Of a stretch of DNA of 64,000 nucleotides, positions 6,001-61,834 are shown one piece after another. Every line of letters starts with the position of its first letter. Positions within the stretch are counted from its first letter, which is position 1. Made by a program: the position numbers and the translations under genes. This DNA is from a bacterium (lineage in GTDB: Bacteria > Omnitrophota > Gorgyraeia > Zapsychrales > Zapsychraceae): NCBI GenBank assembly GCA_030429765.1, contig JAUIER010000016.1, positions 38,017 to 102,016 on the forward strand, in the 5' to 3' direction. Under the pieces are notes generated by a model that did no database searches, was not told the DNA's origin, and was given only the letters and a program-made list of their open reading frames with translations.

Positions 6001-6538
6001 CTTACGCGACAATAACTATGACGCACTGGCCCAAGAGCTAGAGCAGTTCAGCCGGCAGAATCGGATCAGAGAATGGGACTTCCGGCGTTTTGCCGCGGCG
6101 ACCTACAAAGATGATAACAATACAGAGTACATTTTGACTTCATCTGTTGATAGTGACGGTAAGAGGCTATCTGAAACTCAAAGGATTGCCAATTTGATCT
6201 TTGCTATCGGGGCCACGCAGAATTTTAATTTGGATGTGGATGTCAATGAGCGTCGTATGCAGGCCTATCTGGATCGTGCGATGAGCGCGGATACGGATGT
6301 CGGGGGGATCGATTTGAATCCGGATCTCATTCAACTGAACGTTGAGGGTGAGATGCCGTCCAATAATGCATTGAAGTACCCGTATGAGCTGCCGGTTCCC
6401 GTCGACATCAAGGGATTTGTGCCGGTAATTATTCAGATATCACCCGTACCGAACATACTCAATTATATGGGTGTAAACCTTCAACCCGGTGAGGTGCCGG
6501 GATACAATGATCAGCAACGGCTTTCGGCCGTTCGTTAA
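2..6538 (+). CDS. Giant multidomain alpha-glucan biosynthetic enzyme, 5'-partial. Domains in order: a starch-binding-like beta-sandwich, a glycogen/starch synthase GT5 module, a second beta-sandwich, a second GT5 module, a P-loop domain, a 4-alpha-glucanotransferase GH77 (amylomaltase) and a C-terminal module.
   Basis: There is no in-frame stop between nt 2 and the GTG at 47. The upstream frame reads SRRVYLESNRNVTGSW, which matches the internal repeat SRRVYLHSNRNVLGEWV at ~nt 1940, so the gene continues off the window. Glycogen-synthase motifs occur twice: KVGGLADV and KVGGQGDV, FTIHNFRSQG and FTIHNIGYQG, and EPSGLTQMQAMRYGAVPVVR(R/N)TGGLADTV. GH77 motifs are present: YGIGDFGP, WQVLPLNPT, SPYSSDSSFALNPLF, LDHFRGL, IAEDLGEITPDV, YTGTHDNNT and GNWTWR. 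Confidence 0.85.
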   Translation, partial: DFDGSRRVYLESNRNVTGSWRRELQPATFVENRGGRAVYEFKVRAQRSFDYNFVFVNADGTEEWTDIPFGNHTVEVKKQYTADVVFVGMEHKLFAKVGGLADVMHSLPRAFAKSGNDTTVILPHFKNLDYQLEEYGFEDVPGFEIEIPFRQRDNVRLKAKQAIVEGVKVYILDAETDDLFGQIYKDNRNIFLESILLSRGSLELLRHLGRPVSVINSADHHAALVPLYMETLYKDDFSETGSVFTIHNFRSQGDYPLEWYEELGMPFDDELYYSFAKYGRINMLSVPGELLHRVGKGHYVNTVSQGYAQEIREVFSDVANLYSEAGIRFGGILNGLDFEAWDPNTDPNIARNYSLSDGAESIKAARERNKKELQWILSPEGDKSLIKLKDPANVHGELTTESDRLLVGVVSRLDSQKQIDIIADMLEDMYAGRRPALNIDVLINGTGDPALTQRLAEIASDARKHNIGISVVFVNEYLQVLTQKLMAGADVLLIPSYFEPSGLTQMQAMRYGAVPVVRRTGGLADTVFEDPEHWNGFVFEGADRLLHDEVEDMNRRKINTSGLYDAVSRAQDVYYNDPETWTTIVEQGMSEENDWNRSLNDYMNVYGWLYDERHQDVRGGTILSGDQVVKDKDTVVLRVAAHSRSKSRRVYLHSNRNVLGEWVTDKTPARYVETIDGQDIFEVEVQARRNFEYTFAFDYGNDDIVFLEHSEGYPKVTIESEFTGAVAFVGMEFGPLVKVGGQGDVMFELPKALVKSNKEVAVVLPKFDILEEKLAGKELVEIEDWKMTIPFEYRDDVTLRAYETDLDGVRVILIDADAPDLFIRPYNVAEDGSRDSEFYESILLSRGSLDVLRHLKRAGSLDVDVINSADHHTALIPLYMRHTYAEDFARTGNVFTIHNIGYQGRYEPEMYSELGLDESLRDMVQIGDELVFMGVPPTVINRLGKEGNYINTVSSSYAKETRPTQFGLNTSVLQSVGNRYGGILNGLDFDVWDPATDKMIHTNYSITDGMDAVLEARAQNKRELQEILSGEGDLSEIGIKDLKNFSGRLRVGSDRMLVGLVSRLVGQKQIDIIADMIDDMLNGRKEQISVDFVLNGTGDSDIEQRLAELAKKVEEAGLDMSFAFVNEYLQPVTQKIMAGADVVLVPSDYEPSGLTQMQAMRYGAVPVVRNTGGLADTVHELGDNWSGFVFDGVPRLLENPDVDQRRRQQNADDLFLAIRRANEVYVNDREQWHKIINTAMRAENDWSRSLGDYLNVYTWLTDELKRKADPGFAKMSRTLSASYQEYLRSDPEPGRPFVVAVKGNYASGKSMMRRALMDELEKFGLVVDFVHDEFYFDDPAGYHSIADAVRLKNGVNILIYEIERYLPTGADEIDMYIETRSELSTVKRRIAADSKKWEDLEERVLASMSAEGFSALTPDVSIQLDTQLTDDEFREFIGEGLVEMSFTKAPPARDSTANARLMSDTPAELTKERLRGIIEQRMPSRTSGVLTHVSSLDSEYGIGDFGPSARRFVDFLIASNQDVWQVLPLNPTDAEFNHSPYSSDSSFALNPLFVSPDDLVEMGVLSSEQITKFRRPNNRFVDYDAVSANKREMLRLAFDQREDGPGVVQKFKRFKALHRDWLDRYVMYRAISAAHEGRSWNEWPEGLRDRRAKALVDFRVDHKDEIEYYAFEQFLLFEQWGKLQKYAQKAGVKILGDLPLYVSYDSADVWSNKELFNLDDDYNPITISGVPPDAFSADGQKWGHPTFHWRRMQANGYRWWMERIAHNLQLYDQVRLDHFRGLVQYWSIPADAESANAGHWEQAGDQHFFSLIIQRFGVGRLIAEDLGEITPDVIEVLEQLGIRRMKILQFGFDGENLRDNTFFPENYDENSVAYTGTHDNNTIRGWFRHELGDQARENLQRFLGKDLMEEQIHWDIIQAAMRSGAETVIFPLQDVFGLDESSRMNLPGVAAGNWTWRISSADMDADTVRELGTLKATTRPPQIKLMRSVGMNLVSRASKFLRDNNYDALAQELEQFSRQNRIREWDFRRFAAATYKDDNNTEYILTSSVDSDGKRLSETQRIANLIFAIGATQNFNLDVDVNERRMQAYLDRAMSADTDVGGIDLNPDLIQLNVEGEMPSNNALKYPYELPVPVDIKGFVPVIIQISPVPNILNYMGVNLQPGEVPGYNDQQRLSAVR

Positions 6539-6576: not shown

Positions 6577-9500
6577 ATGTCAAACGTATCTAAAAATCAA
6601 AAATTTAAAATTTGGGCCGCAGCCGCCCGGCTGATCATTGCGATGACGTTTATGCTATCGTCCGTAATGCCGGCAGGAATGGCGTTGGCGGACATTGATC
6701 GTTCAACGCTGGACAATATGAATATGGTACAGCCCGGCTCAATCGTCCGGCTGAGCGAGGCCTTTGAACCGGTCGTTCTTAAAGGGATCAATATTCGACC
6801 GGACCAGCCGTACACATTTGACTTTTTGGTCGATACCAACGGACACGACATGTCCGACGCCGAGTTTGAAGCGGAGTCGCAGAAGTTGATTAAGTATTTT
6901 TTGGCGTCGCTGACCATCCCCGAACAGGATATGTGGGTCAACTTGTCGCCATACGAAGCCAATCGCATGATCCCTGAAAGTTTTGGTCAAACCGAGATGG
7001 GACGTGATTTGCTGGCGCAGGATTATATGCTCAAGCAATTGACGGCTTCCTTGATGTATCCGGAAGATGAGTTAGGTCAAAAATTCTGGTCGCGGGTGCA
7101 AGACCTGGCGAACGAACAGTTCGGTACGCATGAACTGCCGATGAAGACATTTAACAAGGTCTGGATCGTTCCCGAGCAGGCGCGGGTTTATGAACATGAA
7201 CGCGGCGCGGTTGTGGTTGAGAGTTACTTGAATGTCATGTTGGAAGAGGATTACCTGGCGCTGGAAGCCAACGCAGGACGCACCAATCATGGTCTTGGTG
7301 ATGTCAGTGCGGATGAGCTGGTATCCAAGCAGGATGTATCCACGCGGGTAATCCGCGAGATTATTATACCTGAGATCGAACGTGAAGTGAACTCGGGTGA
7401 AACCTTTGCGAATCTCCGACAAATCTACAACTCGATGATCCTGGCAGTCTGGTACAAACGGGTCCTCAAAGAAAGTCTGTTAGGACAGATCTACATGGAC
7501 AAAGGTCGTGTCGAGGGAATTGCCCAGCCGAGTATTGAAGACAACCAAAAAATTTATGACATGTACGTCGAGGCGTTTAAGCGCGGTGTTTACAATTACA
7601 TCAAGGAAGATGTGGATCCGGCGACGAATCAGGTTGTCCCGCGGCAATATTTTTCCGGCGGTGCAGTCCCAATTACAGATCAGGCCGTGCTCGTCGAGCG
7701 CACAACCGCCGAAGAAACGCGGGCTGAACTGGAGCGAAGTCAAGTCCGGATGCTGACTGTCCGTATGGGACGTGTTCCGGACGTTAAACAAGACTACGCG
7801 GTGCTGGCGCAGGATCCTGAGCTTCAGCAGTTCTTAAGTGAGATTCGCGAGCCATCGAATAACGCCTTTACGGATATTTCGTTAGAAGCGGCGATCGCGG
7901 AACTCGAAGGTGAGGCCGAAGGAGCGCTCGGTAAAGGCGGTTTGGGATTCCTGACCGGTGATACGTGGGGAGCCTACAAGCATCTGAGTACGTATAGAGG
8001 TCTGGGCGTCATGCCATTGTATGATCGTCATTATAATCCCGGATCTGAATCGATTGATTGGGACAATCAGCCAGGCATTAAGCCGTTTATAGATCAATCG
8101 ACCGGAGAAGTTTTAACGTTCAATGTGGATTTCAATCTAGGCAGTTTTCCGGTTCAGATCTATTGGGTTAACCGAAACGGGATGCCAGTCTTTCTGATCC
8201 GCTCCGCCGACTTTTTCGGACAATTGTATCCCGGGGGCAACGCGCAGAAGCAGCAGTACGGTTTCTTGGCGCGAGCTTATGTGGAGCTCATGAAGAAACT
8301 GGAGATTGCTCCAAAGATTGTACGCTTAAGTGAGGGGCAGCTGGTTTTTGTTGGAACGGCTATGAAGAATGACGTGAAACATTTTAAAAATAATGGCGGT
8401 GAGAGTGTCTTTGACCAGGCCAAGATCGTATTTACAACGCATACGCCCGAAGCAGCGGCGTTGCCGATCTTTTATGACCTGGATGAGCTTGAGAATTTGG
8501 TCGGGCGGGATTTGTTCGAAGATATCATCGAGAATGGTCGAGTCAATGCAGCCAAGGCCCTGGCCGACATGGCGGATATCGTCAACGGTGTATCTGAAGA
8601 GCATGGTTCTGTAACCAAGGTTGCCGTGTTGCCCGAGTTCCGCAACAAAACCACTGCGATTCAAAACGGTAATGAAGAGGCGACGTGGTATTCCGGCCGA
8701 TTACGCGAGCATGTGGAAACAGTCGGGCTGGCCAATGTTACCGGTAAGGATCTCTTTGATATCGGCACAGAGATCAAACAAAATGATCTACAGCAATTGT
8801 TGCAGGATGAGTTCGGTGTAAAGTTTGCCGATCCGTCGAGGCCTCTGGTCGGTCTTGTTCGTCGACTGGTCGCTTATAAGGAACAGCAGATGTTCATTCC
8901 ATTGGTGAAATGGATTGTAGGTGACCCGAACAAGGATTACTACCATGATGAAACCGGTGACTATCTCGGCAAAGGGCTGGGAGCGAACCTCTTGATCGGA
9001 GGGCATTCGCTGGACGATGTCTCGCCGGTTTGGGTGCGTGAGTTCCGCCGGTTGATGCAGGAAGAAGATGTCAAAGGTAAGTTTCTTTATGTGGCCGGTA
9101 CCGGAATTGAATTGCGAAAACTGGCGGTAGCCGGTTCTGATATCTGGGTCAGTATTCCACGACCGACGCGTGAGGCTTCCGGAACCTCGGATGGAGCCGC
9201 TGCCCTGAATGGAACCGTCAATATTGCCACGGCAACGGGCGGTCCGCTGTCCTATATTAAGCATCGAAAAAATGGATGGCTTATCGATGTGTTTGCCGGA
9301 CAATCGCTGGATAATGTCACCCTGCGGTTTGATCAGGGGGATCACGATATTATCAAGGAATTTCAGTATGAAGGCGGAAGACAGCTGGCGACCGCACTGC
9401 GCGAATCGACCGAACGCCTAAACGATTACACGAGGCGCGGAAACACAGAGTGGTTAAAAACCATGCGCGCGTCGTTTACCGCGTCGCATCGTGAGGTGTC

Positions 9501-9858
9501 AATCGGGGTCATGATCCGCAAGTACGGACTGCTTTTTGACAGTGTCCTGGATGGGTCCGGAGCCGAGGGCTTTCGTGAGAAGATGGCTGCCTTCGACTTT
9601 ATCCCTGAGGGTGTCGAAACCGATTCGGCCTTACTAGCCGGTAAACCGGATGAGGTCGGGGGGATCGATTTGAATCCCGAGACCATGAATCTTTTGGTCG
9701 ACCGCGAAGGCCAGGGCTTGGTGGTTCCAGAATGGAAACCGATACCGGGCAGCGAGCGGATCCTCGGACTTCAGCCGATCATCCTCAATGTGACGCCTGT
9801 CGTCAATCTACCGCTGATTCTGGGGCTGAAAACCGTCGACACAGAGGCCGATGGCTAA
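6577..9858 (+). CDS. Alpha-glucan phosphorylase (GT35) homologue. It has an N-terminal signal or anchor, a ~430 aa unknown N-domain and a C-terminal module shared with the preceding gene. It is possibly non-catalytic, because there is no lysine in the EASGT motif.
   Basis: GGLGFLTGD...GLGVMPLYDR matches the GGLGxLAGD...LLYR motif of short alpha-glucan phosphorylases. TTHTPEAA and VNGVSEEHG are also present. EASGTSDGAAALNG occurs where EASGTSGMKAAMNG is expected. The N-terminus is KNQKFKIWAAAARLIIAMTFMLSSVMPAGMALA. An RBS (AGGAGA) precedes the ATG. Confidence 0.65.
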   Translation: MSNVSKNQKFKIWAAAARLIIAMTFMLSSVMPAGMALADIDRSTLDNMNMVQPGSIVRLSEAFEPVVLKGINIRPDQPYTFDFLVDTNGHDMSDAEFEAESQKLIKYFLASLTIPEQDMWVNLSPYEANRMIPESFGQTEMGRDLLAQDYMLKQLTASLMYPEDELGQKFWSRVQDLANEQFGTHELPMKTFNKVWIVPEQARVYEHERGAVVVESYLNVMLEEDYLALEANAGRTNHGLGDVSADELVSKQDVSTRVIREIIIPEIEREVNSGETFANLRQIYNSMILAVWYKRVLKESLLGQIYMDKGRVEGIAQPSIEDNQKIYDMYVEAFKRGVYNYIKEDVDPATNQVVPRQYFSGGAVPITDQAVLVERTTAEETRAELERSQVRMLTVRMGRVPDVKQDYAVLAQDPELQQFLSEIREPSNNAFTDISLEAAIAELEGEAEGALGKGGLGFLTGDTWGAYKHLSTYRGLGVMPLYDRHYNPGSESIDWDNQPGIKPFIDQSTGEVLTFNVDFNLGSFPVQIYWVNRNGMPVFLIRSADFFGQLYPGGNAQKQQYGFLARAYVELMKKLEIAPKIVRLSEGQLVFVGTAMKNDVKHFKNNGGESVFDQAKIVFTTHTPEAAALPIFYDLDELENLVGRDLFEDIIENGRVNAAKALADMADIVNGVSEEHGSVTKVAVLPEFRNKTTAIQNGNEEATWYSGRLREHVETVGLANVTGKDLFDIGTEIKQNDLQQLLQDEFGVKFADPSRPLVGLVRRLVAYKEQQMFIPLVKWIVGDPNKDYYHDETGDYLGKGLGANLLIGGHSLDDVSPVWVREFRRLMQEEDVKGKFLYVAGTGIELRKLAVAGSDIWVSIPRPTREASGTSDGAAALNGTVNIATATGGPLSYIKHRKNGWLIDVFAGQSLDNVTLRFDQGDHDIIKEFQYEGGRQLATALRESTERLNDYTRRGNTEWLKTMRASFTASHREVSIGVMIRKYGLLFDSVLDGSGAEGFREKMAAFDFIPEGVETDSALLAGKPDEVGGIDLNPETMNLLVDREGQGLVVPEWKPIPGSERILGLQPIILNVTPVVNLPLILGLKTVDTEADG

Positions 9859-10012
9859 AAATCCATCCTTTGCTGGCGGTATGCCGCAGATATGCTATAG
9901 TTATGGGGCTGAGCGGGTTAGCCTTATCAAACCCGCTTGGTCCCGAATCAGGTAAACTGTCTGAAAAGACAGGGCACAAAGCTTTAGAACCTAATCTTCA
10001 AAGGGGTGAAGA

Positions 10013-10393
10013 ATGGTCGTCAGCTGCAAACAAATGAGGCATATCTGTAGTACAGTGATACTATCTTTGGCCGTTCTGGCCAGCACGGGACAGGCCGATG
10101 TTCGTCCGTTGACCGATGAGGAAATGGAGGAGATCGTCGCCGCTAACCTTCCGGTCGTTTCACCTGACAAAATCAACGCTGAGTTTTCCAGTCAAATAGC
10201 AGAGCTTGTCCAGACCATCACGGGTATCATCAATACTGGGATCAGTTCGGCGCTGGACAGCCAGGGCGGTTTAGTTCATATTAATGCCCTGAATTCCACG
10301 GCCAACGTGCAGATCAACTTTACGATCGGTGATCAACAGGCCGGGACATCCATCTACCAGTCCAATACCTATAATCCAACCAACAACCGATGA
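10013..10393 (+). CDS. Small secreted protein of unknown function
   Basis: An AAGGGGTGA RBS precedes the start. There is an internal signal peptide, ICSTVILSLAVLASTGQA. The stop overlaps the next gene's start (ATGA). Confidence 0.5.
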   Translation: MVVSCKQMRHICSTVILSLAVLASTGQADVRPLTDEEMEEIVAANLPVVSPDKINAEFSSQIAELVQTITGIINTGISSALDSQGGLVHINALNSTANVQINFTIGDQQAGTSIYQSNTYNPTNNR

Positions 10394-10884
10394 ACCGACG
10401 CACACGACAGTACGCGCATTTGAGACCATTGATTCGGACAGCGGGAGATTATCTGTCTATCCTGTTTCTCGTGACGGGTATCAGTGGTTGCACGCTCAAT
10501 GAACCGCCGTATGAGTATCTGCCGGATGGTACGTTTAGTTACAAGACCGGTCCGATTCCGGTGATGGAATCGGTCAGTGATCCGAATACGTACAAGGGTT
10601 ATGTTCAAATGAAGGTCAAGTTTAAGGCCGATGAATACACGGCGAGCAATAAATTTGATCAAGGCGGCAGTGTGTTTGTGTCATTTTGGGTCGATTCAAG
10701 CGGGCATGTCGTCAAGGTCAAAGTGGTGCCTGAAAGTTCCAGCGCGCCGAAAGCATTGTACAAGCCGGCCGAACAGATCATCTACGACGCCGGGCCGTTC
10801 AAGCCCTTTCCGGAGGATATCAAATCCTCGACGCTGCAGTTTAATCTGATCATCAACTTCAAAGTTTCCGATCCCGATCAATAA
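10390..10884 (+). CDS. Lipoprotein with a TonB-C-terminal-like domain
   Basis: The lipobox is LVTGISGC. The C-terminal region GGSVFVSFWVDSSGHVVKVKVV...PFKPFP resembles the TonB_C fold. Confidence 0.45.
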   Translation: MNRRTRQYAHLRPLIRTAGDYLSILFLVTGISGCTLNEPPYEYLPDGTFSYKTGPIPVMESVSDPNTYKGYVQMKVKFKADEYTASNKFDQGGSVFVSFWVDSSGHVVKVKVVPESSSAPKALYKPAEQIIYDAGPFKPFPEDIKSSTLQFNLIINFKVSDPDQ

Positions 10885-20281: not shown

Positions 20282-21775
20282 ATGAAGATCGATCATATTA
20301 AAGAACTACTAGAGTACGCGATAGAGCAAGAAGCCTCAGATGTCCATTTGGTCGTTGGAAGTCCTCCTGTAATCCGTGTCCATGGTGATATGACCGCAGT
20401 CGATGCGGATGTCCTGACCGATGAATCCATTCAAAAGCTGATCTATGACCTGCTCAACGAGGAGCAGAAGCGTAAATTGCACGAGAATCGTGAGCTGGAC
20501 AGTTCCTATGCCTACCGCGAAGACTACCAGTTTCGGGTCAATGCCCATTTTGAAAAAGGGCATATGGGATCCACCATTCGAATTACCCCATTGAACATCG
20601 ATACGATTCTGAGATTCGGACTTCCACCCGAGCTCAAAGACATTGCGCATCGGCACAAGGGTTTGTTTGTCGTTTCCGGAACTTCAGGAAGCGGGAAGAG
20701 TACCACGTTGACGTATATCGTCAATATGATCAACAACATGCGCAAGGCCAAGATCATCACGGTCGAGGATCCGATCGAGTACACCCATAAATCCAAACAA
20801 AGTCTTATCATTCAACGCGAAGTTTCGGTTGATACACCTTCATTCGCCAGTGCGTTAAAGTATTCATTGCGACAAGACCCGGACGTTATCGTTATCGGGG
20901 AAATCCGTGATTACGAGGCGATTTCTATGGCGTTGACCGCCGCGGAAACAGGTCACTTGGTATTAACGACCGTTCACGCGCCGGATGCGGTCGAAACCCT
21001 CAACCGTATCATCGACGTATACCCATCGGGATACCGAGAACAAATTTGTGCTCAGCTGGGGGGTAACTTAATCGGTGTTTGCTCGCAGACGCTTATTCCG
21101 AAAAAGGATTCGTCGGAACGGATCATGGCCACCGAATTGTTGCTATCAACGATCTCCATACGTAACCTGATCCGCCGCGGGGCGTTTACGGAATTGCGGG
21201 GTCAATTAGACTCTGAAGAAGATTCGCCGACGCACACCTTTGAGCGCTGTTTGTCTCGGCTCGTGTTAGATGGGAAGATTACCCGTGAAACTGCCGAATC
21301 GCACGCGCGATATCCTAATCTGTTGCAATTAGGTAATGAGCAGACATTTAAATTTAACACCTCGGCCAAGAAGGAAGGCAAGCGTTTGACGGCCGATGGG
21401 CGCGAAATCGATATGAATATCGACAAGGTATTTATTGTTGATCGAAGTGAAAAAGACAAGATCGAGATGGGCAAAGTTTTTAAAGATATCGGCTATATTA
21501 ACATTACCTATATTGCCAAGGGGGCTGATGCTTACGATAAAATTCTAGTGGAAAACCCTGTTATTGTCGTATTGGACACATTTTTTCCTGATGTGGACAG
21601 CTTTAATCTTTGCAAGATGATCAAGGACAATCCTGATCTGAATACGAAGGTCATTATGGTGACCGGAAACTTGCAGCCAACGGATCTGGAAGATGCAAAA
21701 TCTGCTGGTGCGGATGATTTTGTGGTTAAAACGTATCAGTATGATCTGTTAAGGAAAACGTTAGAACAACTGTAG
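20282..21775 (+). CDS. pilT: PilT/PilU-family type IV pilus retraction ATPase with a fused C-terminal receiver (REC) domain
   Basis: The Walker A is GTSGSGKSTT. Other PilT blocks are IITVEDPIEY, DPDVIVIGEIRD and AAETGHLVLTTVHA. A C-terminal ~120 aa region, KVFIVD...VVLDTFFPDVD...VIMVTG...VVKTY, has the CheY-like residue pattern. Confidence 0.8.
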   Translation: MKIDHIKELLEYAIEQEASDVHLVVGSPPVIRVHGDMTAVDADVLTDESIQKLIYDLLNEEQKRKLHENRELDSSYAYREDYQFRVNAHFEKGHMGSTIRITPLNIDTILRFGLPPELKDIAHRHKGLFVVSGTSGSGKSTTLTYIVNMINNMRKAKIITVEDPIEYTHKSKQSLIIQREVSVDTPSFASALKYSLRQDPDVIVIGEIRDYEAISMALTAAETGHLVLTTVHAPDAVETLNRIIDVYPSGYREQICAQLGGNLIGVCSQTLIPKKDSSERIMATELLLSTISIRNLIRRGAFTELRGQLDSEEDSPTHTFERCLSRLVLDGKITRETAESHARYPNLLQLGNEQTFKFNTSAKKEGKRLTADGREIDMNIDKVFIVDRSEKDKIEMGKVFKDIGYINITYIAKGADAYDKILVENPVIVVLDTFFPDVDSFNLCKMIKDNPDLNTKVIMVTGNLQPTDLEDAKSAGADDFVVKTYQYDLLRKTLEQL

Positions 21776-25188: not shown

Positions 25189-26841
25189 ATGCTTAACAAC
25201 ATGTTCACACCTACGTACACCAGAGTCGTGCTTACCACATTGCTCGCGGGACTGATAGCTGCACCCGCCATGGCCGAAAATTCCAGAGAACGAAGAATTC
25301 GTGAAATGGGATTCATTCCGATCACTGAGGTCTCGGCTGAAGACATTCCCGCCGAAAAAATCGAGTATGTGCCGGTTCCAAAGGTGATGGACATTCCGCA
25401 AAGCAGTCCGGCCCGAATCCGATCTACGTCAAACGATCGACTGGCTGCCAGATCCGAGGCGGATGTGTCGATCGAGGTCGCGCCGATCTATGTTTCTCCT
25501 AATAAGAACTCAGCCGGTGATCCGGTATCTGTGTCCACCGTTTCGCCGTCAGGTAACCTCGCGCCGATTATCGTTTCACCCAAGGGGTCGGAGATCGGAC
25601 AGGTTCAGTATGACGATCCATCGCTTAACCAACGGTTTAAGGCCGTGGCCACAGCCATTTGGGATACGGATGAACCGCGGACGCGAGCTGTTGATACAAG
25701 TAATCCGATTCACCGTCAGGAAGCACGGAATTATTACGGCTATGATGAACGCTCGGGGCAGCTCAAAGACGGCTTTCAGGGGGCGATGTTTGATGAGGAT
25801 CTTCACCATCAATACGCCGGTGGCGGTGTGGCGATGCCTGTGGGACAGGATGGCTACCACTATGACTATGAAAAGCCGATGCCAAATGAAGTTCTAGACG
25901 AATTTGAGCCCTATCCAACGATCGACTTAGACTATACCACGCGGGATAAGGGTTTGGGGCTTCCTTTATTCGATGCGCGGCTTCAGGTGACCGGAGGATA
26001 TCGTGTCGATGACCTGGACTGGAATATCGCGGCAGACCTAAGCGGTTCGGTTGAACCGAACATTCTCTCAGAGCTAACTTGGTCCGATCTTCAGATGTTT
26101 GAAGTCAAGGGGCGTGGTGAATTGGTGTTTTCGAATATCGCCGTGGTAGATTTCAAAGCCGGATATGCCTGGATCGTCGAAGGAGAAAACCAGGATTCAG
26201 ATTATTTCGGCAATAACCGTACACAAGAATTCTCGAGATCCTTATCGGATACGGATGATGGTGATGCTTGGGATTTGTCTCTTGGTGGAGGCGTGAGAAT
26301 CGCAATTAATCAGCCGCACGAGCTCTTCATGGTTGACCGTCTGTGGTTGACCTTGTTGGCGGGATACTCACAACACTCACTTGATGTTCAGGATAAGAAT
26401 TTGAATCAAATAATTCCGGATCTCGGAAATTTTGTAGATGGGCTTGATAGTCGTTACAATGCTGATTGGGAAGGTCCATGGCTAGGGATTCAGCTGGACG
26501 GGGCCAATCGAAATGATAAACTGTATGGCTATTTCAGAATTGAATACCACTTTCCAGATTATGAAGGTGATGCAACCTGGAATCTACGTGAAGATTTCGC
26601 CCAACCTTTGAGTTTTGAACATTGGTCTGACGATGGTTGGGGTATTGTTTTTGACATGGGTGGAAATTATCAGATTAATGACATCTGGAATTTTGGTTTC
26701 AGTCTCACATTGCAAGATTGGCAAATGGATCCGGGGCTTGATAGAGTTTATTTCAGCAACGGTACATCGGCGGATACCCGCCTGAATCAGGTTAATTGGG
26801 ACTCGCTCTCTATAGGCTTTGGCCTCACCGCAAGATTTTAA
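25189..26841 (+). CDS. Putative outer-membrane beta-barrel protein
   Basis: The signal peptide is TTLLAGLIAAPAMA. The sequence shows alternating aromatic and hydrophobic residues and ends in ...GFGLTARF, with a terminal Phe. Confidence 0.5.
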   Translation: MLNNMFTPTYTRVVLTTLLAGLIAAPAMAENSRERRIREMGFIPITEVSAEDIPAEKIEYVPVPKVMDIPQSSPARIRSTSNDRLAARSEADVSIEVAPIYVSPNKNSAGDPVSVSTVSPSGNLAPIIVSPKGSEIGQVQYDDPSLNQRFKAVATAIWDTDEPRTRAVDTSNPIHRQEARNYYGYDERSGQLKDGFQGAMFDEDLHHQYAGGGVAMPVGQDGYHYDYEKPMPNEVLDEFEPYPTIDLDYTTRDKGLGLPLFDARLQVTGGYRVDDLDWNIAADLSGSVEPNILSELTWSDLQMFEVKGRGELVFSNIAVVDFKAGYAWIVEGENQDSDYFGNNRTQEFSRSLSDTDDGDAWDLSLGGGVRIAINQPHELFMVDRLWLTLLAGYSQHSLDVQDKNLNQIIPDLGNFVDGLDSRYNADWEGPWLGIQLDGANRNDKLYGYFRIEYHFPDYEGDATWNLREDFAQPLSFEHWSDDGWGIVFDMGGNYQINDIWNFGFSLTLQDWQMDPGLDRVYFSNGTSADTRLNQVNWDSLSIGFGLTARF

Positions 26842-27710: not shown

Positions 27711-28862
27711 TTGGACGAAAACAATTCAGTAAAATTTGACAAGCCCTTGTATATCCTGATTGTCGAGGATAACCAGGTTGACCTTCGCCTGTTGCAGGGG
27801 ATGCTCGCGGTATCAGAAAATTCCACTGAGCGGTTGAAGTGGACAAACACGGTGAAAGGGGCGTTGGAGTTATTATCAGCGCATGATTTCGATGCCGTAG
27901 TTTTGGATTTGAATCTCCCGGATTTACGGGGGACCGAGACCATTCGGCGGGTCAATGAACTCTTTCCCGACATTGCGGTGGTCGTCAACACAGGCGAATA
28001 CGAAGAAGAGTTGGGGATAGAGGCGTTGGAATATGGGGCGCAGGATTTTCTGGTCAAGGGACGGTACAACGGATACACATTGCTTAAGTCGCTGCACTAT
28101 GCGGTTAAACGTAAGCGACTAGAGACGCAGGTGCTTGAGGCCTATGGGCAGCTCAAGGAGGCTCAAGGTCAGTTGATCCAGGTAGAGAAAATGAAGGTCA
28201 TCGGCGGGATCGCCAGCGGTGTGGCGCATGAAGTCCGCAATCCTTTGGCGGCGATCAAGTATGGCATTCAGTATCTCAATGAAAAATCAACGGATCGTAG
28301 CGAGGATATCGTCAAGGTGTTGGAGAGTATGGAGGATTCAGTAAATCGGGCGAACGATATTATCACAGACCTGCTGGATTTCAGCGGATTATCCAATTTG
28401 GAACAGCAATCTGAAAGTTTAAATGTCTCGGTCCTTAAATCTTTGGCGCTGGTGAATCATGCAATCTCTAAAAAAGAAATCGCCGTAGACAAGCAAATTG
28501 ATATTAACTTGCCGAATGTCAAGATTGACCGCAATAGGATTGAGCAGGTGATTATCAACTTGCTGTTGAACTCCATCAATTTTGTAGAAAATGGAGGCAA
28601 GATAACAGTCAAGACTTACACGGATGACAATCATGTTTATCTGGATGTCATTGACAATGGCAAGGGAATTGACGATTCGATCAAGAAAAGAATTTTTGAT
28701 CCGTTCTTCACCACGCGGCGGGCCAATGGCGGAGTCGGCCTGGGTCTGTCGATTTGTAAAAACATCATGGATGTGCACGGAGGAAAAATTGAAGTGCAGA
28801 ACAACCCGGACGCCGGCGTTACGGCCCGTTTGGTATTTCCTGTCCTCACCGCCGCCTCATAG
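27711..28862 (+). CDS. Hybrid sensor histidine kinase (REC-HisKA-HATPase) with no sensory input domain
   Basis: ILIVEDNQVD...VVLDLNLPD is the receiver domain. AHEVRNPLAAI is the H box. DNGKGIDDS...GGVGLGLSICK are the G boxes. The start codon is TTG. Confidence 0.8.
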   Translation: MDENNSVKFDKPLYILIVEDNQVDLRLLQGMLAVSENSTERLKWTNTVKGALELLSAHDFDAVVLDLNLPDLRGTETIRRVNELFPDIAVVVNTGEYEEELGIEALEYGAQDFLVKGRYNGYTLLKSLHYAVKRKRLETQVLEAYGQLKEAQGQLIQVEKMKVIGGIASGVAHEVRNPLAAIKYGIQYLNEKSTDRSEDIVKVLESMEDSVNRANDIITDLLDFSGLSNLEQQSESLNVSVLKSLALVNHAISKKEIAVDKQIDINLPNVKIDRNRIEQVIINLLLNSINFVENGGKITVKTYTDDNHVYLDVIDNGKGIDDSIKKRIFDPFFTTRRANGGVGLGLSICKNIMDVHGGKIEVQNNPDAGVTARLVFPVLTAAS

Positions 28863-28946
28863 CGGCGCACTAAAAATCCCATTTATGTCTCGCGCACGGC
28901 GTGTGTGCGTCAGTGTTCAACATCAATCATCTTTTGAGGAACCACT

Positions 28947-29516
28947 ATGAAAAAGTCATCCAAGAATGACAAGCCCAAGAAGGTCAAGAGTCCTTACATC
29001 AAGGTTAAAAAGTCAAAGATTCACGGAACTGGAATCTATGCGAAGACAGATATCCCGGCCGGCACGCGTGTGATCGAATATGTAGGGGAGCGTGTTACCA
29101 AGAAAGAATCGGATCGCAGGGCGCAAACGCCTTTGGAAAACAATGCCGAGAACGAAGAGATGGGAGCTGTTTACCTTTTTGAAATCAACAAGCGTTATGA
29201 TCTGGATGGATATGTTCCATATAATACCGCGCGATTTATCAATCATTCGTGTGATCCCAATTGCGAATCGGATATTATCAAAGGACGCGTGTATATCATC
29301 GCAATTCGGGATATCAAAAAGGGTGAGGAAATCTTTTACAATTACAACTACTCTTGGGAAGACTACGAAGATCATCCGTGCTACTGCGGGACAAAACGCT
29401 GTGTGGGATTCATACTCGCTGAAGAATATTGGCCGAAACTCAAGCGAAAACTCAAAAAAAAGCGTGAAGCCAAGCAGAAAAAAAGCAAAAAAGGCGAGAA
29501 AAATAACAAAAAATAA
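28947..29516 (+). CDS. SET-domain protein-lysine methyltransferase with lysine-rich N- and C-terminal tails
   Basis: SET motifs are GTGIYAKTDIPAGTRVIEYVGE, NHSCDPNC and ELFYNY-like EIFYNYNY. The post-SET region is CYCGTKRC. The tails are KNDKPKKVKSPYIKVKKSK and KLKRKLKKKREAKQKKSKKGEKNNKK. Confidence 0.8.
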   Translation: MKKSSKNDKPKKVKSPYIKVKKSKIHGTGIYAKTDIPAGTRVIEYVGERVTKKESDRRAQTPLENNAENEEMGAVYLFEINKRYDLDGYVPYNTARFINHSCDPNCESDIIKGRVYIIAIRDIKKGEEIFYNYNYSWEDYEDHPCYCGTKRCVGFILAEEYWPKLKRKLKKKREAKQKKSKKGEKNNKK

Positions 29517-29656: not shown

Positions 29657-32128
29657 ATGAAAAATACAGCCAACCTAATTCGACTCGTAGTTATTTTTTC
29701 ACTTATCTTTGCGCCAGCTGTTCCTCACGCGCAAGAATCTCCAGATAAAATTGCCGACTCATTCTATGAGCACGGCCTTAAACTGCTCGAAAGCGGTGAC
29801 TACAACGCTGCAATCAATGATTTCAGCCGAGCGTTTCTGCTCAATCCTCAAGATCCCAAATTATATCAGGCCCTCAAATCCCTGGCTCGCGACCGAAATG
29901 TTCCCGCGGCCCAAAAGATGGAGCTGATCCTGCTTGAAGATTTGTTGGGATATACCAACAAACTCCAGGAAAAACGCGACTATTTCCGCTATAAGCGTAA
30001 TGTATTAGGGGAAGAGTTGATCAACAAGGGGTTCGATCGATCTTTTTTTGAGGAAGAGATGATGGCGATGCAGCAGGGCGTCTTTGAAGATTACAGTGTC
30101 GAAGAGCAGGCAATCCAGGAGCGCTACGCCAAGGGTGAAGATCCGGTCAAGGTGATCCACGCTTCCATCCAGTTGGAGAATGAAAGGCTGCAGAAAGAGA
30201 TTGACCTGTACGAACGGCAATTTGGTCATTTAAGGGAAATCAATGCCCAGAATGGTTACATCGAAGGAGAATTGGTATATTTAAGTCCATCCGAATTCAG
30301 CCGTAAACAGAAATTTTATGATGCCGATGGCAAACGGTTACCGGTAGATGTAGCGCCGGTTCAGATCGCTGCTCAGGACCTCAACAGTATCGATGGTATC
30401 AGTTATCTGCTTGATGAAGCCAAGACGCAGATCGACAACATGAAAATGGTAGTAGACGGCCGTGATGATAAAATTCAGCAATTATCGCAGGAAGTCGTTG
30501 ATCTGTCACTTGAGCTTACCGAAAGCCGTGCCAATGAGAGCTTCAAAGATCAGGAAATCACTGAACTCAAGGATGTCATTGTCGAATTTGAAACCAAGAG
30601 TTTGTTGTCTCAGCGCATGGAGCAGAATTTCAGCAAGCTCAAGAGCGATCTGGCCAAGCGGGATGAAATGATCCAGGAAAAAGATCAGAAAATCTCCGAT
30701 ATGGGCTATGAAATCGAAGACAAAGACCGAAACATCGAAGAGCTCAGCCAGCAAATCCAGGAATTGGTCTCCAAAAGCGACAGTCTTCAGAAAGACCTCG
30801 AAGAACGTGATCTGCAGATATCAAATTACGAAGCGCAAATTCAGGAATTAGAAGCCAGCGCGGCCAAGCTTCAGGAGTATCAGGATGAAGTTTGGAAGTT
30901 GCGACATGAGCTGACCAAGGCGCGTGAAGGTCAAGGCGAGCTGACGGAAGTCCGTTCTCAATTGGCTCAAACGGAGCAGGAATTGGCGATGAAGGATGAA
31001 CTGCTTGCACAGAAAGATCAGACAGTTAATGATCTTAACCAGCAATTAGCTGATCTGGAAATCAAGTTCGCCCAAAGTCAGCAAATTATTGCCGAAAAAG
31101 AGGCATTGCTTGAGAGTCAGTCCGTTGAGTTGGCCGGCAGCCGCGATATGTTTGATTCGCAATTGATGGCCAAAGACGGTGAGATTCAGGAACTCAATAA
31201 AATTCTTGAGGAATATAGAGACAAATTAGCAAACGTTGATAAAATGTTAAATGAAAAAGACGCCAGCATGGCATCGCTTCAGGAAGAACTTACCGGGATT
31301 CGCGGTAAGCTGATCAAGGACGAGGAAAATCGTTTTGTTATCAGTGAAGCGGATGTAGCCAAGAAGGATGAAATGATTGCCGAGAAAGAGGCCGAACTGG
31401 CTGAACTTTCGCAAATGGTATCAGTCTACAAATCCAATCTGGCCAAGGCCAACAAAGACATCAATTACCAGAAACAGCAGATTGATGAACTGACCAAAGA
31501 GTTGGCCAATCTCGACAATAAAATGATGTCGAGAGATCGATTGTCGCGGGAAAAATTGAATCACATCAAACTTCTGAAAGATATGCTTAAACGCGAGAAG
31601 GAAAAGCGGGATGAGCGAAATCAGAAGCTTCGCGAAATCGTTAAAGAGAAGGTCCTTGAAATTGAAGAGCTTGAAGGGATGCTTGATGTATACAAGAGCA
31701 AGCTCAAAGATCGACATTTCGTGGCTGAAGAGCGTGAGCAATTGATGGCCAATATGGAAAATCAATTGCAAAGCACATTGATGATGCTCAACAGCAAATC
31801 AGATGTGATCAACAAGACGCATCACAATTTGAGTGTCCTTCAGGATCAGCTTAACGAAATAAATGACAGTTTGATTGCGATCCAGAACGGCAGTTCAGGG
31901 AGCGATCAGGCGGATGTAGATGAAGAAATCAATCGGTTACAGCTTAAGATAGATGACATCAATACGTTTCTTCAAGGCGAAATTCAAACGATTGAAAGCG
32001 ATAAACACATGTCAGACGCCGATGAATCATCTGAACTGGATGTTGTTGACGACATCCAGTTGGATTCAGAGCTGGACAGTGTGAACATCGACGCTCAAGA
32101 TCTTGAACTAGATTTAGATCATATATAA
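29657..32128 (+). CDS. Exported giant coiled-coil protein with a TPR-like N-terminus and an acidic C-terminus
   Basis: The signal peptide is LIRLVVIFSLIFAPAVPHA. About 650 aa are rich in heptad-compatible E, K, Q and L. The tail is DDIQLDSELDSVNIDAQDLELDLDHI. Confidence 0.6.
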   Translation: MKNTANLIRLVVIFSLIFAPAVPHAQESPDKIADSFYEHGLKLLESGDYNAAINDFSRAFLLNPQDPKLYQALKSLARDRNVPAAQKMELILLEDLLGYTNKLQEKRDYFRYKRNVLGEELINKGFDRSFFEEEMMAMQQGVFEDYSVEEQAIQERYAKGEDPVKVIHASIQLENERLQKEIDLYERQFGHLREINAQNGYIEGELVYLSPSEFSRKQKFYDADGKRLPVDVAPVQIAAQDLNSIDGISYLLDEAKTQIDNMKMVVDGRDDKIQQLSQEVVDLSLELTESRANESFKDQEITELKDVIVEFETKSLLSQRMEQNFSKLKSDLAKRDEMIQEKDQKISDMGYEIEDKDRNIEELSQQIQELVSKSDSLQKDLEERDLQISNYEAQIQELEASAAKLQEYQDEVWKLRHELTKAREGQGELTEVRSQLAQTEQELAMKDELLAQKDQTVNDLNQQLADLEIKFAQSQQIIAEKEALLESQSVELAGSRDMFDSQLMAKDGEIQELNKILEEYRDKLANVDKMLNEKDASMASLQEELTGIRGKLIKDEENRFVISEADVAKKDEMIAEKEAELAELSQMVSVYKSNLAKANKDINYQKQQIDELTKELANLDNKMMSRDRLSREKLNHIKLLKDMLKREKEKRDERNQKLREIVKEKVLEIEELEGMLDVYKSKLKDRHFVAEEREQLMANMENQLQSTLMMLNSKSDVINKTHHNLSVLQDQLNEINDSLIAIQNGSSGSDQADVDEEINRLQLKIDDINTFLQGEIQTIESDKHMSDADESSELDVVDDIQLDSELDSVNIDAQDLELDLDHI

Positions 32129-37381: not shown

Positions 37382-37539
37382 TTGGGTTGAAGCTGAGAGA
37401 GCGATGGCGGCTTAATTGGTTCGGAGTATCGAAATTTACATAAGTATATAAATTACAGTAGTTTATGTAATTATTTGGTTCGGAGGGGTGGAAATGGAGG
37501 TTAAATTTGTGCTATACTGTACAGAAAAAGGGAAACCAG

Positions 37540-37980
37540 ATGTCCAAATCATTTAAAGTTACAGCCAGCTTATTGATGTTTTTTTTAATATTTGCAATGG
37601 CAATGTGTCCTCCAGCTGTTGCGGATGAGGTCCCCTTGTACATAAAGTATCGGTTTCAGAAGGAAACCGGTCGTCGGTGGATAGATGCATCGCATGAGCG
37701 GCAACAGAAGTTTTTGGCCGAGGTTCGGGATCGAAACCGAAAGGCCAGAATGCGAAAGCAAGTCAAAGCCATGAAGCAGGCTCAGAAAGCCAGTGTCGAA
37801 CAGTCTCGCCGGGCGGTCAAGGAAGCCAAAGAAAATGCTCGAAAACAGCGACGGCTAGTGAGACAGCAAATCAAGCAGCAAAAACTGCTTTTGCGAAGAC
37901 AAAAAGCTCAGCAAATGCGGGCCAAAATGATTGAGAAAATCCGACAGGCCAGAGAGAAAAGCAAGAGTTTACGTCGTTAG
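37540..37980 (+). CDS. Exported lysine/arginine-rich basic protein
   Basis: The RBS is AAAGGGAAA and the signal peptide is LLMFFLIFAMAMCPPAVA. An ~100 aa K/R/Q-rich helical segment follows. Confidence 0.5.
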   Translation: MSKSFKVTASLLMFFLIFAMAMCPPAVADEVPLYIKYRFQKETGRRWIDASHERQQKFLAEVRDRNRKARMRKQVKAMKQAQKASVEQSRRAVKEAKENARKQRRLVRQQIKQQKLLLRRQKAQQMRAKMIEKIRQAREKSKSLRR

Positions 37981-38737
37981 TATTTTGGATAAAATCGCAG
38001 AACTTACAAATTTTATTTTAACCTCCAAAAACCTATGCTTCTTCACGGGAGCAGGTATATCCACTGACAGCGGTATCAGCGATTACCGCAGCAAGGGCGG
38101 TCTGTGGGACCGCTTCACACCCATCACCATCCAAGAATTTATAGATGATCCAGCCAAACGTCAGGAGTATTGGCGCAGAAAGATCGAGTTGTATCAGAAT
38201 TTTTCCAAGGCCAAGCCTAATCCTGGGCACGTAGCAATTGCCGAATTTGAGCAATTCGCCCCGGTGCGTGGGGTGATTACCCAGAACATTGATGGTTTGC
38301 ATCAGCTCGCCGGAAGTACAGCCGCTCATGTCATTGAGATCCACGGCAGCAACCGGGAAACTATTTGTCTGAATTGTGGAGACTTGACGTCTTGGGAGGA
38401 TTCTTATCAACGTTTGACTAGCGGCGAATCGGCACCGCTTTGTCTCTCCTGCGGCGGTTTGCTCAAACCGAATACCATCTCATTTGGGCAGCGACTCAAC
38501 CCAGAAATTTTGGATAGGGCTGTACAACTGGCCGGTGAATGTGATTTAATGATTGTAGTCGGGTCAACACTCCTCGTGGAGCCGGCGGCAAGTTTACCTC
38601 GCATTGCGAAGAAGAACGGAGCCGCTTTGGTGATCATCACGCTGTCGGATACGCCCTTAGATCAGCTGGCCGATATCAAATTTTCTGAATCAGCATCCGA
38701 CGTTTTATCCGCGGCGGTTGAATCGTGTCGATCTTAA
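37931..38737 (+). CDS. cobB: NAD-dependent protein deacylase, Sir2 family
   Basis: Sir2 motifs are CFFTGAGISTDSGISDYRSKGGLW, ITQNIDGLH and a CxxC...CxxC Zn site. The 5' end overlaps the previous gene. The true start is probably TTG near 37985. Confidence 0.8.
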   Translation: MRKSDRPERKARVYVVSILDKIAELTNFILTSKNLCFFTGAGISTDSGISDYRSKGGLWDRFTPITIQEFIDDPAKRQEYWRRKIELYQNFSKAKPNPGHVAIAEFEQFAPVRGVITQNIDGLHQLAGSTAAHVIEIHGSNRETICLNCGDLTSWEDSYQRLTSGESAPLCLSCGGLLKPNTISFGQRLNPEILDRAVQLAGECDLMIVVGSTLLVEPAASLPRIAKKNGAALVIITLSDTPLDQLADIKFSESASDVLSAAVESCRS

Positions 38738-60532: not shown

Positions 60533-61834
60533 ATGGAGGAATGCATGGAGGAAAAGGCAAAAATTGTTCTGGACGGAAAAACGTATGAATTTCCTGTAGA
60601 GACCGGAACAGAAAACGAAAAAGCCATCGATATCTCCAAGTTCAGGGCGCAGACATCGTATGTGATGCTGGACAATGGATTTGGAAACACGGGAGCCTGC
60701 AAAAGCGCGATCACGTTTCTCGACGGGGAAAAAGGAATTTTGCGTTATCGAGGCATTCCGATCGAGCAGATCGCCGAGAAATCGACATTTGTTGAGACCG
60801 CCTACCTTTTAATCAATGGTCAGTTGCCGACGGATGCGCAGCTCGCTTCTTTTGCCTCTTCGTTTACGGAGCACGCGGCGTTGTTGCCGGATATGCTCAA
60901 TTTTTTCAAGGCCTATCCCAAAGATGGTCATCCGATGGGATTGTTGTCATCAATGGTGTGTTCGCTGTCGGGGTATCATCCCGAACTACTAAAACCGGAC
61001 TTAAGCGAAGAAGAGATTCAGTTGATGGCGGCTAAGCTGTTATCCAAAGTCCGCACCATTACCGCTTACACCTACAAAAAATCTATCGGCGAAGATTTTG
61101 TCCCGCCCCGCGATGATCTCAAATACATTTCGAATTTTCTACATATGATGTTCTCGACCAAGGACAAGGAATATGACCGTCACGACGCCGTGGTCAACGC
61201 GCTGGAGGCTTTGCTGATCCTGCATGCGGATCACGAACAGAATTGCAGTACATCGACCGTGCGCTTAATCGGTAGTTCCTGGGCGAACCTGTTCGCGTCG
61301 GTGTCCGGCGGTGTCAGTGCTTTGTGGGGGCCGCTGCATGGCGGGGCCAATCAAAAGGTCGTCGAGATGCTCGAAGAGATCCAGGCGGCCGGCGGAGATA
61401 TCCATAAATTTATCGAGAAGGCCAAAGATCCGGATGATAATTACCGCCTGATGGGATTTGGCCATCGCGTATACAAGAATTTCGACCCGCGGGCGACCAT
61501 CATCAAGAAACGTTGCCATGACCTGTTTGAAACCCTGGGCATCCAGGATCCGTTACTCGACATCGCTGTAAAGCTTGAAGCAGCGGTGCTAAAGGACGAT
61601 TATTTCAGCGAACGCAGACTCTATCCGAATGTTGACTTCTACAGCGGCCTTATCTACAAGGCGATTGGTATTCCTACAAAAATGTTTCCAGTTTTATTTG
61701 CGATCGGGCGTATGCCCGGCTGGATCGCGCACTGGAAAGAAATGAAAGCGGATCCTCGATCCAGAATCGGCCGGCCGCGGCAAATCTATGTTGGTTTAAA
61801 CGAACGCGATTACGTTCCCCGGGATCAACGATAA
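60533..61834 (+). CDS. gltA: Citrate synthase
   Basis: GFGHRVYK and ...HADHEQNCSTSTVRL... are citrate synthase signatures. Confidence 0.9.
   Translation: MEECMEEKAKIVLDGKTYEFPVETGTENEKAIDISKFRAQTSYVMLDNGFGNTGACKSAITFLDGEKGILRYRGIPIEQIAEKSTFVETAYLLINGQLPTDAQLASFASSFTEHAALLPDMLNFFKAYPKDGHPMGLLSSMVCSLSGYHPELLKPDLSEEEIQLMAAKLLSKVRTITAYTYKKSIGEDFVPPRDDLKYISNFLHMMFSTKDKEYDRHDAVVNALEALLILHADHEQNCSTSTVRLIGSSWANLFASVSGGVSALWGPLHGGANQKVVEMLEEIQAAGGDIHKFIEKAKDPDDNYRLMGFGHRVYKNFDPRATIIKKRCHDLFETLGIQDPLLDIAVKLEAAVLKDDYFSERRLYPNVDFYSGLIYKAIGIPTKMFPVLFAIGRMPGWIAHWKEMKADPRSRIGRPRQIYVGLNERDYVPRDQR

Follow-up and report, generated by a model that had tools for sequence, protein, structure and literature searches.

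Why does a bacterium encode a small SET-domain protein with a lysine-rich tail resembling a nuclear localisation signal (NLS), and where would such an enzyme act? This question is raised by a gene within a 64,000 bp stretch of an Omnitrophota genome (assembly GCA_030429765.1, contig JAUIER010000016.1), here referred to as the window. Its product is here named the SET protein:

28936-28941, + strand: Shine-Dalgarno-like GAGGAA, ending 5 nt before the ATG, read from the sequence
28947-29516, + strand: coding sequence of the SET protein, ATG start, stop codon included, 189 amino acids, from the list of open reading frames (ORFs)

A preliminary description of this DNA had reported a SET protein at this position. 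The ORF is real and every motif quoted for it was found: H26-G27-T28-G29, E44-Y45-V46-G47-E48, N99-H100-S101-C102-D-P-N-C106, Y131-N-Y133-N-Y135 and the post-SET sequence C145-Y-C147-G-T-K-R-C152. The start methionine is shared by a homolog of 92% identity (P0001), and a Logan contig carries exactly the same protein together with the same neighbours. By all sequence and model criteria the enzyme is apparently intact. The catalytic part is composed of two elements:

29025-29348, + strand: SET catalytic domain, residues 27-134 (Pfam PF00856, model positions 1-105 of 105)
29379-29402, + strand: post-SET motif C145-x-C147-x4-C152, aligned with the post-SET region of MLL1 and Set1

The match to PF00856 reached 92.8 bits against a cut-off of 22.4 (expectation value (E) 2.1e-26). 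The domain holds the motifs GxG (27-29), EYVGE (44-48) and NHSCDPNC (99-106) as well as the tyrosine block Y131/Y133/Y135. In an alignment of 58 homologs H26, G29, E44, Y45, G47, N99, H100, C102, Y131 and Y133 were invariant. The cofactor-binding and catalytic motifs by which SET methyltransferases are recognised were all present, with residues that are invariant or nearly so among these homologs. C145, C147 and C152 were invariant as well, and a CxCx(3-6)C motif was found in 120 of the 120 closest homologs. Together with C102 these cysteines are predicted to form a zinc site which closes the cofactor and substrate channel.

Enzymes of the KMT2 type (MLL1, PDB 2W5Z; yeast Set1, PDB 6VEN) were the best matches by sequence and by structure, with 37-38% identity over ~145 residues. 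SET1/MLL catalytic domains ranked first in a sequence search of the PDB with phmmer (E ~1e-25; ~1e-31 with the profile), and the alignments spanned from residue 11-12 to residue 156, including the post-SET motif. An AlphaFold2 model built on the 58-homolog alignment showed a SET fold with a mean predicted local distance difference test (pLDDT) value of 80. Foldseek superimposed it on the SET domain of MLL1 (2W5Z) with a probability of 1.00, an E of 1e-12, a root mean square deviation of 2.9 Å and 37% identity over 145 columns. The SET beta-fold with its pseudoknot was thus recognised on a predicted, not an experimental, structure.

Common to the SET protein and KMT2 are the N-flank KKTS..V..S.IHG.G, NHSCxPNC, the tyrosine block with the switch tyrosine and CxCx4C. 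Unlike KMT2, the SET protein stands alone with its 189 amino acids, without WRAD-binding (Win) or other eukaryotic modules, and its substrate cannot be histone H3, which is absent from the bacterium. In the PDB sequence alignment Y131 was placed opposite the tyrosine of MLL1 in TYDY, which we take to be the Phe/Tyr-switch position. Since a tyrosine occupies this position, mono- or dimethylation rather than trimethylation is predicted.

The regions flanking this core had been described as two highly basic tails. The alignment separates them into four segments:

28947-28973, + strand: residues 1-9 (MKKSSKNDK), variable basic N-terminal extension, absent from most homologs
28977-29024, + strand: residues 11-26 (KKVKSPYIKVKKSKIH), conserved N-flank and first beta-strand of the SET domain (alignment, AlphaFold2 model)
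29403-29453, + strand: residues 153-169 (VGFILAEEYWPKLKRKL), position-conserved post-SET extension ending basic (alignment)
29454-29513, + strand: residues 170-189 (KKKREAKQKKSKKGEKNNKK), polybasic tail, composition kept, length and sequence variable (alignment)

The N-terminal extension is confined to residues 1-9. The alignment columns of residues 1-9 were occupied in no more than 9-39 of the 58 homologs, most of which start around position 10. Residues 11-26 belong to the SET fold: they align with the residues in front of the SET domain of MLL1 (KKTSKEAVGVYRSPIH) and yeast Set1 (KRKKPVMFARSAIH), and the model places a strand at residues 18-23. The consensus of the family in this part is KKTTSPYIxVKKSxIH, with S15 conserved in 55, P16 in 51, Y17 in 48 and both S23 and H26 in all 58 of 58 homologs.

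The C-terminal tail (residues 153-189) contains 16 K/R and four D/E, resulting in a net charge of +12, whereas a pI of 6.3 was calculated for the core (residues 15-157). MLL and Set1 stop right after the post-SET motif, to which the SET protein adds this basic extension of 37 residues. Its first part is conserved by position (G154 57/58, I156 58/58, E159 54/58, W162 57/58), and this includes the basic stretch (K/R164 57/58, L165 51/58, K/R166 54/58, K/R167 51/58). Along residues 170-189 the column occupancy drops from 58 to 17, while K+R account for ~0.35-0.7 of the occupied cells. Past residue 169 charge and composition are therefore what is conserved; the length varies and no particular lysine is kept. 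A helix was modelled at residues 159-188 (pLDDT 85-95), which we did not use as structural evidence, because lysine-rich stretches are often modelled as helical. The basicity of the tail is not a proteome-wide bias, since among ~60 non-overlapping ORFs of the window just one other besides the SET protein exceeds 22% K+R and the GC content is ~0.49.

The same architecture was found far beyond the window. A word-indexed search returned 2,054 homologs, the best 120 of which were 57-92% identical and mostly from Omnitrophica metagenome-assembled genomes (MAGs); named homologs are already annotated by NCBI as "SET domain-containing protein-lysine N-methyltransferase". A profile search of 1.84 billion cluster representatives yielded 22,256 SET proteins at E<=1e-3, 7,312 at E<=1e-10 and 236 at E<=1e-30, and a scan of one genome per species gave at least 582 loci. 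All lineage assignments of homologs are those of the record labels alone. By record title the bacterial loci of the scan belong to Omnitrophota, Verrucomicrobiota, Planctomycetales, Pelagibacteraceae, HIMB59-type Alphaproteobacteria, Gemmatimonadaceae, Acidobacteriota and Steroidobacteraceae, and the archaeal ones to Woesearchaeota and Methanosarcinales-labelled MAGs.

All 120 closest homologs carried the conserved WPKLKRK segment and a K/R-rich tail after the post-SET motif. Its length ranged from 14 to 68 amino acids; the medians were 10 for K+R and +6 for the net charge, and 72% of the 120 had a net charge of at least +5. Among complete representatives after clustering at 50%, 73 of 118 had a net charge of at least +4. 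Distant members showed the same design, as in the SAR11-type sequence GYIVREGSRWRIKKKKK and in the Acidobacteriota- and Gemmatimonadaceae-type proteins, where CRGTM is followed by K/R-rich tails; it was also present, tail included, in DPANN-labelled MAGs. The SET protein has the full layout of this family, which is a grouping defined by alignment and not a curated one: ~150-220 amino acids with the N-flank TSPYI.V.KS.IH, SET, post-SET, xGYIxxExxW-P-K/R-L-K/R-R-K and a K/R-rich tail. As judged from these sequences, the entire prokaryotic family shares the basic C-terminal tail. The gene of the window is a further member of this large, already annotated family, and no new principle arises from the locus itself.

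Some members deserve separate mention. Seven homologs with the same architecture and 44-67% identity came from archaea-labelled MAGs, namely L001, L025 and L048 (Methanosarcinales) and L011, L027, L033 and L049 (Woesearchaeota). Their archaeal labels are those of the record titles, and binning error and inter-domain transfer are both conceivable. Tails with AKK or PAKK repeats (P0271, P0359, P0396 and P0267) resemble the DNA-binding tails of histone H1, Hc1 and AlgP-type proteins. P0247 is a tandem SET protein, and P0301 is fused to a HAM1-like domain identified by eye.

An origin from mobile elements was rejected. There was no phage homolog of the SET protein, the matches on plasmids and chromids were distant Burkholderia-type proteins covering the core only (~36-38% identity over residues 26-160), and no composition anomaly beyond the lysine codons was seen. 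Membership in an anti-phage defence system was rejected as well, since PADLOC found no match of the SET protein to its defence-system models.

With the family outlined, the question of where the enzyme acts can be addressed. The preliminary description had favoured a secreted effector with NLS tails which methylates histones of a eukaryotic host, modelled on NUE and RomA (LegAS4). What stood of that interpretation was the complete SET/post-SET lysine methyltransferase with its unusually basic C-terminal tail; the emphasis on a secreted effector did not. The tail does show classical monopartite NLS-like patterns (KLKRKLKKKR), the basic C-terminus of NUE contributes to nuclear accumulation (PMC2904774), the SET core is closest to eukaryotic H3K4 methyltransferases and many Omnitrophota are thought to be host-associated. 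However, SAR11 and numerous further lineages that have no eukaryotic host show the same tail design. The NLS-like pattern does not discriminate, because K-K/R-x-K/R patterns are equally present in the tails of these homologs. SAR11 are free-living oligotrophic plankton without a eukaryotic host, and a tail shared with them is therefore unlikely to have evolved as an NLS.

Further evidence against such an effector came from the protein and its surroundings. Neither a Sec-type hydrophobic signal, as read from the sequence, nor a long N-terminal secretion domain was present. The 64 kb window contained no gene of a type III or type IV secretion system (T3SS, T4SS), its only secretion-type gene being a T2SSE-type ATPase fused to a receiver domain. 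The LegAS4/AnkI equivalog (NCBIfam NF043024) was matched with 47.6 bits against a cut-off of 550 (E 1e-12, 133 of 439 model positions), and the Pfam scan detected no ankyrin domain in the SET protein. Membership in LegAS4 was rejected on account of this low score. The effectors RomA/LegAS4 of Legionella and BtSET of Burkholderia share the SET catalytic core with the SET protein, which differs from them by lacking ankyrin repeats and a Dot/Icm context; the matches leave the tails uncovered.

Indirect evidence from the organism itself does not point to eukaryotes either. The named best matches of the citrate synthase of the window (60533-61834) were 69-82% identical and nearly all from Omnitrophota/Omnitrophica MAGs, the sole exception being a hydrothermal-vent metagenome record. 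The window encodes functions in sulfate assimilation, cysteine synthase, citrate synthase, TonB/ExbB, a TonB-dependent receptor, ABC transport, Amt with PII, MutY, NAD kinase and large glycogen-metabolism fusions, along with a cyclic di-GMP (c-di-GMP)-I riboswitch. The host is an Omnitrophota bacterium with metabolic autonomy, as seen from these genes. For the phylum, prokaryotes have been proposed as partners, either as hosts or as prey, and type III or IV secretion goes unmentioned in the phylum paper (PMC10066038). A literature search found nothing connecting Omnitrophota with SET domains.

Altogether, as judged from the protein, its family and the 64 kb window, the secreted NLS effector has no specific support, and we regard it as highly improbable; a nucleic-acid anchor inside the cell is more likely. 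The resemblance to an NLS is probably a by-product of the polybasic design. The other option of the preliminary description, tails that bind the bacterial nucleoid, appears to fit the evidence better. The description had itself named tails that serve solely for DNA binding in a free-living organism as a finding that would speak against an effector, which makes the effector half of it the weaker one.

A different target for delivery would be prokaryotic prey or hosts, in which the enzyme could methylate archaeal histones or MC1. Omnitrophota have been proposed to be predators or parasites, V. archaeovorus attacks Methanosaeta, and close homologs are present in MAGs labelled Methanosarcinales and Woesearchaeota by record title. 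Furthermore, a Methanosarcina SET enzyme methylates MC1-alpha (PMC3980110). Nevertheless, non-predatory bacteria widely carry the same architecture, the gene is not linked to any delivery system and the window shows broad biosynthetic autonomy. We consider this explanation very unlikely, too.

Our own proposal, which we give about an even chance of being correct, is that the SET protein is a small, cytoplasmic and catalytically competent lysine methyltransferase which acts on the bacterium's own proteins and is held on nucleic acid by its basic tail. On the evidence of sequence and model, the SET core is predicted to bind S-adenosylmethionine and the zinc-cysteine cluster of the post-SET motif to close the lysine channel. 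WPKLKRK and the variable polylysine tail may serve as a non-specific electrostatic anchor to a polyanion, most plausibly DNA and possibly RNA. The acidic-to-neutral core would in this way be kept on nucleic acid, beside basic substrates bound to the same nucleic acid. Candidate substrates are lysines of nucleoid-associated or histone-like proteins of the bacterium itself.

The anchor is proposed because of the analogy with three known cases, i.e. the extension of NSD1-3, cpnSET acting on Hc1 and Go1-SET acting on MC1-alpha. In NSD1/2/3 a polybasic stretch directly follows the post-SET motif, as in the SET protein. This basic C-terminal extension is required for efficient methylation of nucleosomal H3K36 and is expected to contact DNA phosphates (PMC8593083). 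The alignment of NSD2 with the family profile extended into the tail, to profile positions 169-171. NSDs differ from the SET protein by their AWS, PWWP and PHD modules and by a post-SET loop that is autoinhibitory, and the likeness of the tails is compositional, not demonstrably homologous.

The small bacterial SET proteins NUE (CT737, Chlamydia trachomatis) and cpnSET (Cpn0878, Chlamydia pneumoniae), compared here by their published descriptions, come from the wider neighbourhood of the Planctomycetes-Verrucomicrobia-Chlamydiae (PVC) group. At its N-terminus NUE has a type III secretion signal, and it is moved to the host nucleus; the SET protein has neither such a region nor a T3SS context. 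Go1-SET of Methanosarcina mazei, also compared by description, is a prokaryotic SET enzyme that likewise stands alone and modifies a DNA-associated protein of its own cell. It is archaeal, unlike the SET protein, and to our knowledge MC1 does not occur in bacteria. According to a review, the histone-like Hc1 is both an interaction partner and a methylation substrate of cpnSET, and the protein methylated by Go1-SET is MC1-alpha (PMC3980110).

In NUE the sequence KHRKKR begins at residue 206 at the extreme C-terminus, and the loss of the last 12 residues lowers both nuclear enrichment and activity (PMC2904774). This result suggests that the 'NLS' of NUE may be the ancestral basic tail of the family put to new use. 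Furthermore, K209 and K210 of NUE are automethylated, which enhances its activity (PMC2904774). By this precedent the lysine-rich tail of the SET protein could mainly be an element for automethylation or autoregulation (a pseudo-substrate), which would be compatible with an intracellular enzyme. The position of 14 tail lysines beside the post-SET motif, which forms part of the active site, is in agreement with this. On the other hand, past residue 169 charge alone is conserved in tails of 14-68 amino acids, and non-specific electrostatic binding fits this better. We therefore judge a mainly autoregulatory tail to be improbable.

Several points weigh against the intracellular enzyme anchored to nucleic acid. 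In one study, methylation of Hc1 by NUE was not observed (PMC2904774). As far as we found, the literature holds no substrate, DNA binding or activity for the SET protein or for members of the family from free-living bacteria. RNA or ribosomes, polyphosphate and acidic membranes are equally conceivable partners of the polybasic tail, which could also be a substrate itself, and its long modelled helix may reflect a habit of AlphaFold with lysine-rich sequences. Additionally, no histone-like, Hc1-like or SWIB gene was found within the 64 kb window, and the neighbourhoods of 81 loci across phyla give no consistent functional partner.

If the proposal of an anchored intracellular enzyme is true, the tail is ancestral to a family with many members in free-living bacteria, and an NLS-like lysine-rich tail on a bacterial SET protein is therefore not sufficient to identify a nucleomodulin directed at a host. 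A small, soluble and widespread family with the WPKLKRK extension would also offer a handy entry to the question whether nucleoid or ribosomal proteins are methylated by the bacterium that makes them. More far-reaching, and in our estimation rather doubtful, is the idea that stand-alone SET proteins with basic tails are an ancient endogenous chromatin writer of prokaryotes, in which the tail tethers the enzyme to the nucleoid and nucleoid-associated proteins are methylated. In that case the design would be older than the basic extension of NSDs and the 'NLS' of NUE, the latter being co-opted from a DNA anchor. The placement at the phosphate regulon in two phyla, described below, might then hint at regulation by the nutrient state.

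The genomic neighbourhood was analyzed as a possible source of clues to the substrate. Next to the SET gene the window contains:

27711-28862, + strand: hybrid receiver-HisKA-HATPase histidine kinase, upstream of the SET gene (Pfam)
29657-32128, + strand: secreted coiled-coil protein of 823 amino acids, directly downstream of the SET gene, with a signal-like N-terminal hydrophobic segment

The kinase and the SET gene are separated by 84 bp without a terminator-like site or a promoter-like site on the + strand. Both may be co-transcribed, which we mention as context and which does not imply a functional link; the promoter and terminator scan around the SET gene as such was uninformative. A DegP-type protease gene is located downstream of the SET gene as well. 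The order of kinase and SET gene recurred in L081 and in L082, a relative whose homolog is 80% identical, and was not conserved in other phyla. Around the latter homolog a gene order of 12 kb was kept. The SET gene is therefore a stable chromosomal resident of its clade, inherited vertically. The 823-residue protein forms a very long acidic coiled coil with weak matches to coiled coils of the SMC, JetC and LmuB type, and its gene holds the same position in L081 and L082.

All-against-all clustering of the ORFs of the 81 loci revealed no partner common to different phyla. For this reason the neighbourhoods do not decide among the competing explanations, and the order of receiver kinase, SET gene and coiled-coil gene, limited to close relatives, was rejected as a clue to the substrate.

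Neighbouring genes nevertheless bear on a further explanation, by which the tail anchors the enzyme to RNA, with ribosomal proteins or proteins of translation as its targets. Eukaryotic SET-domain enzymes of the Rkm type methylate ribosomal proteins, and K/R-rich C-terminal tails are typical of bacterial RNA-binding enzymes. The SET gene lies beside truA-fmt-def in SAR11-type loci and beside miaB-phoH-ybeY in HIMB59-type loci, and in L003 it is directly followed by a SpoU/TrmH-like gene; these neighbours were identified by reading N-terminal sequences and not by a family scan. In addition, P0256 is fused to an MnmA-like PP-loop domain, identified by eye. However, most of the translation-gene neighbours have the opposite orientation, and they vary from lineage to lineage; the fusions are single cases that may result from read-through in gene calling. 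Moreover, those prokaryotic SET enzymes which were studied experimentally acted on DNA-associated proteins (PMC3980110). An RNA anchor with such substrates is accordingly a possibility we hold to be unlikely, though less so than a mainly autoregulatory tail.

The second recurrent neighbourhood consists of phosphate genes. Two lineages that are not related to each other, the HIMB59-type Alphaproteobacteria and, independently, an Omnitrophota-like clade (L002, L003 and L004), have SET homologs adjoining pstSCAB, phoU and phoB-phoR. In the loci of both lineages the SET gene is located 1-7 kb from pstSCAB-phoU and/or phoB-phoR. In the Omnitrophota-like clade the phosphate genes lie at L003:2105-11989, L002:949-3889 and L004:549-1986. 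In L016, L026, L028-L031, L036, L040, L046 and L047 they were found 1-7 kb downstream of the SET gene (~10001-10500). A published figure of the HIMB59 phosphate island places the SET gene at the edge of the island (PMC10734472).

This linkage would agree with a tether in which the polybasic segment, together with W162, L165 and L169, binds acidic membrane lipids or polyphosphate in place of nucleic acid. Hydrophobic residues among K/R resemble membrane-binding polybasic helices. The linkage amounts to about two independent events, though, and is absent from the window and from most lineages. Such a tether is also without experimental precedent among SET enzymes, and we regard it as a very slim prospect compared with the anchor on nucleic acid. 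The phosphate-regulon linkage was set aside and not counted as evidence; chance could explain so few events.

Several other features of the window were recorded. The c-di-GMP-I riboswitch aptamer (9941-10031, + strand) scored 62.1 bits against a gathering score of 35 and lies upstream of a small ORF whose product looks secreted (10013-10393) and of a protein with a TonB_C domain (10390-10884). An ORF of 2,163 amino acids (47-6538, + strand) combines two starch/glycogen synthase modules (GT5 and GT1, each matched twice) with a C-terminal GH77 4-alpha-glucanotransferase and represents an unusually large glycogen-metabolism fusion. Behind it, a protein of 1,093 amino acids (6577-9858, + strand) shows a partial GT5 match. 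The T2SSE (type II/IV secretion-family) ATPase with its C-terminal receiver domain is encoded at 20282-21775 (+ strand) and was also found in the syntenic locus L082. A protein of the Pom (Protochlamydia outer membrane protein) family (25189-26841, + strand, E 6e-58) agrees with a PVC-related affiliation of the organism.

The only other lysine-modification enzyme of the window is a Sir2-family NAD-dependent deacylase (37931-38737, + strand, E 2e-42), ~8 kb downstream of the SET gene. The TTG listed as its start lies in an overlap with a K/R-rich ORF (37507-37980), which leaves the true start uncertain. Nearly all long ORFs of the window (1-64000) are orientated on the + strand and the GC skew was positive in every 2 kb bin. 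These features suggest that the entire window belongs to a single leading-strand replichore whose gene-strand bias is very strong.

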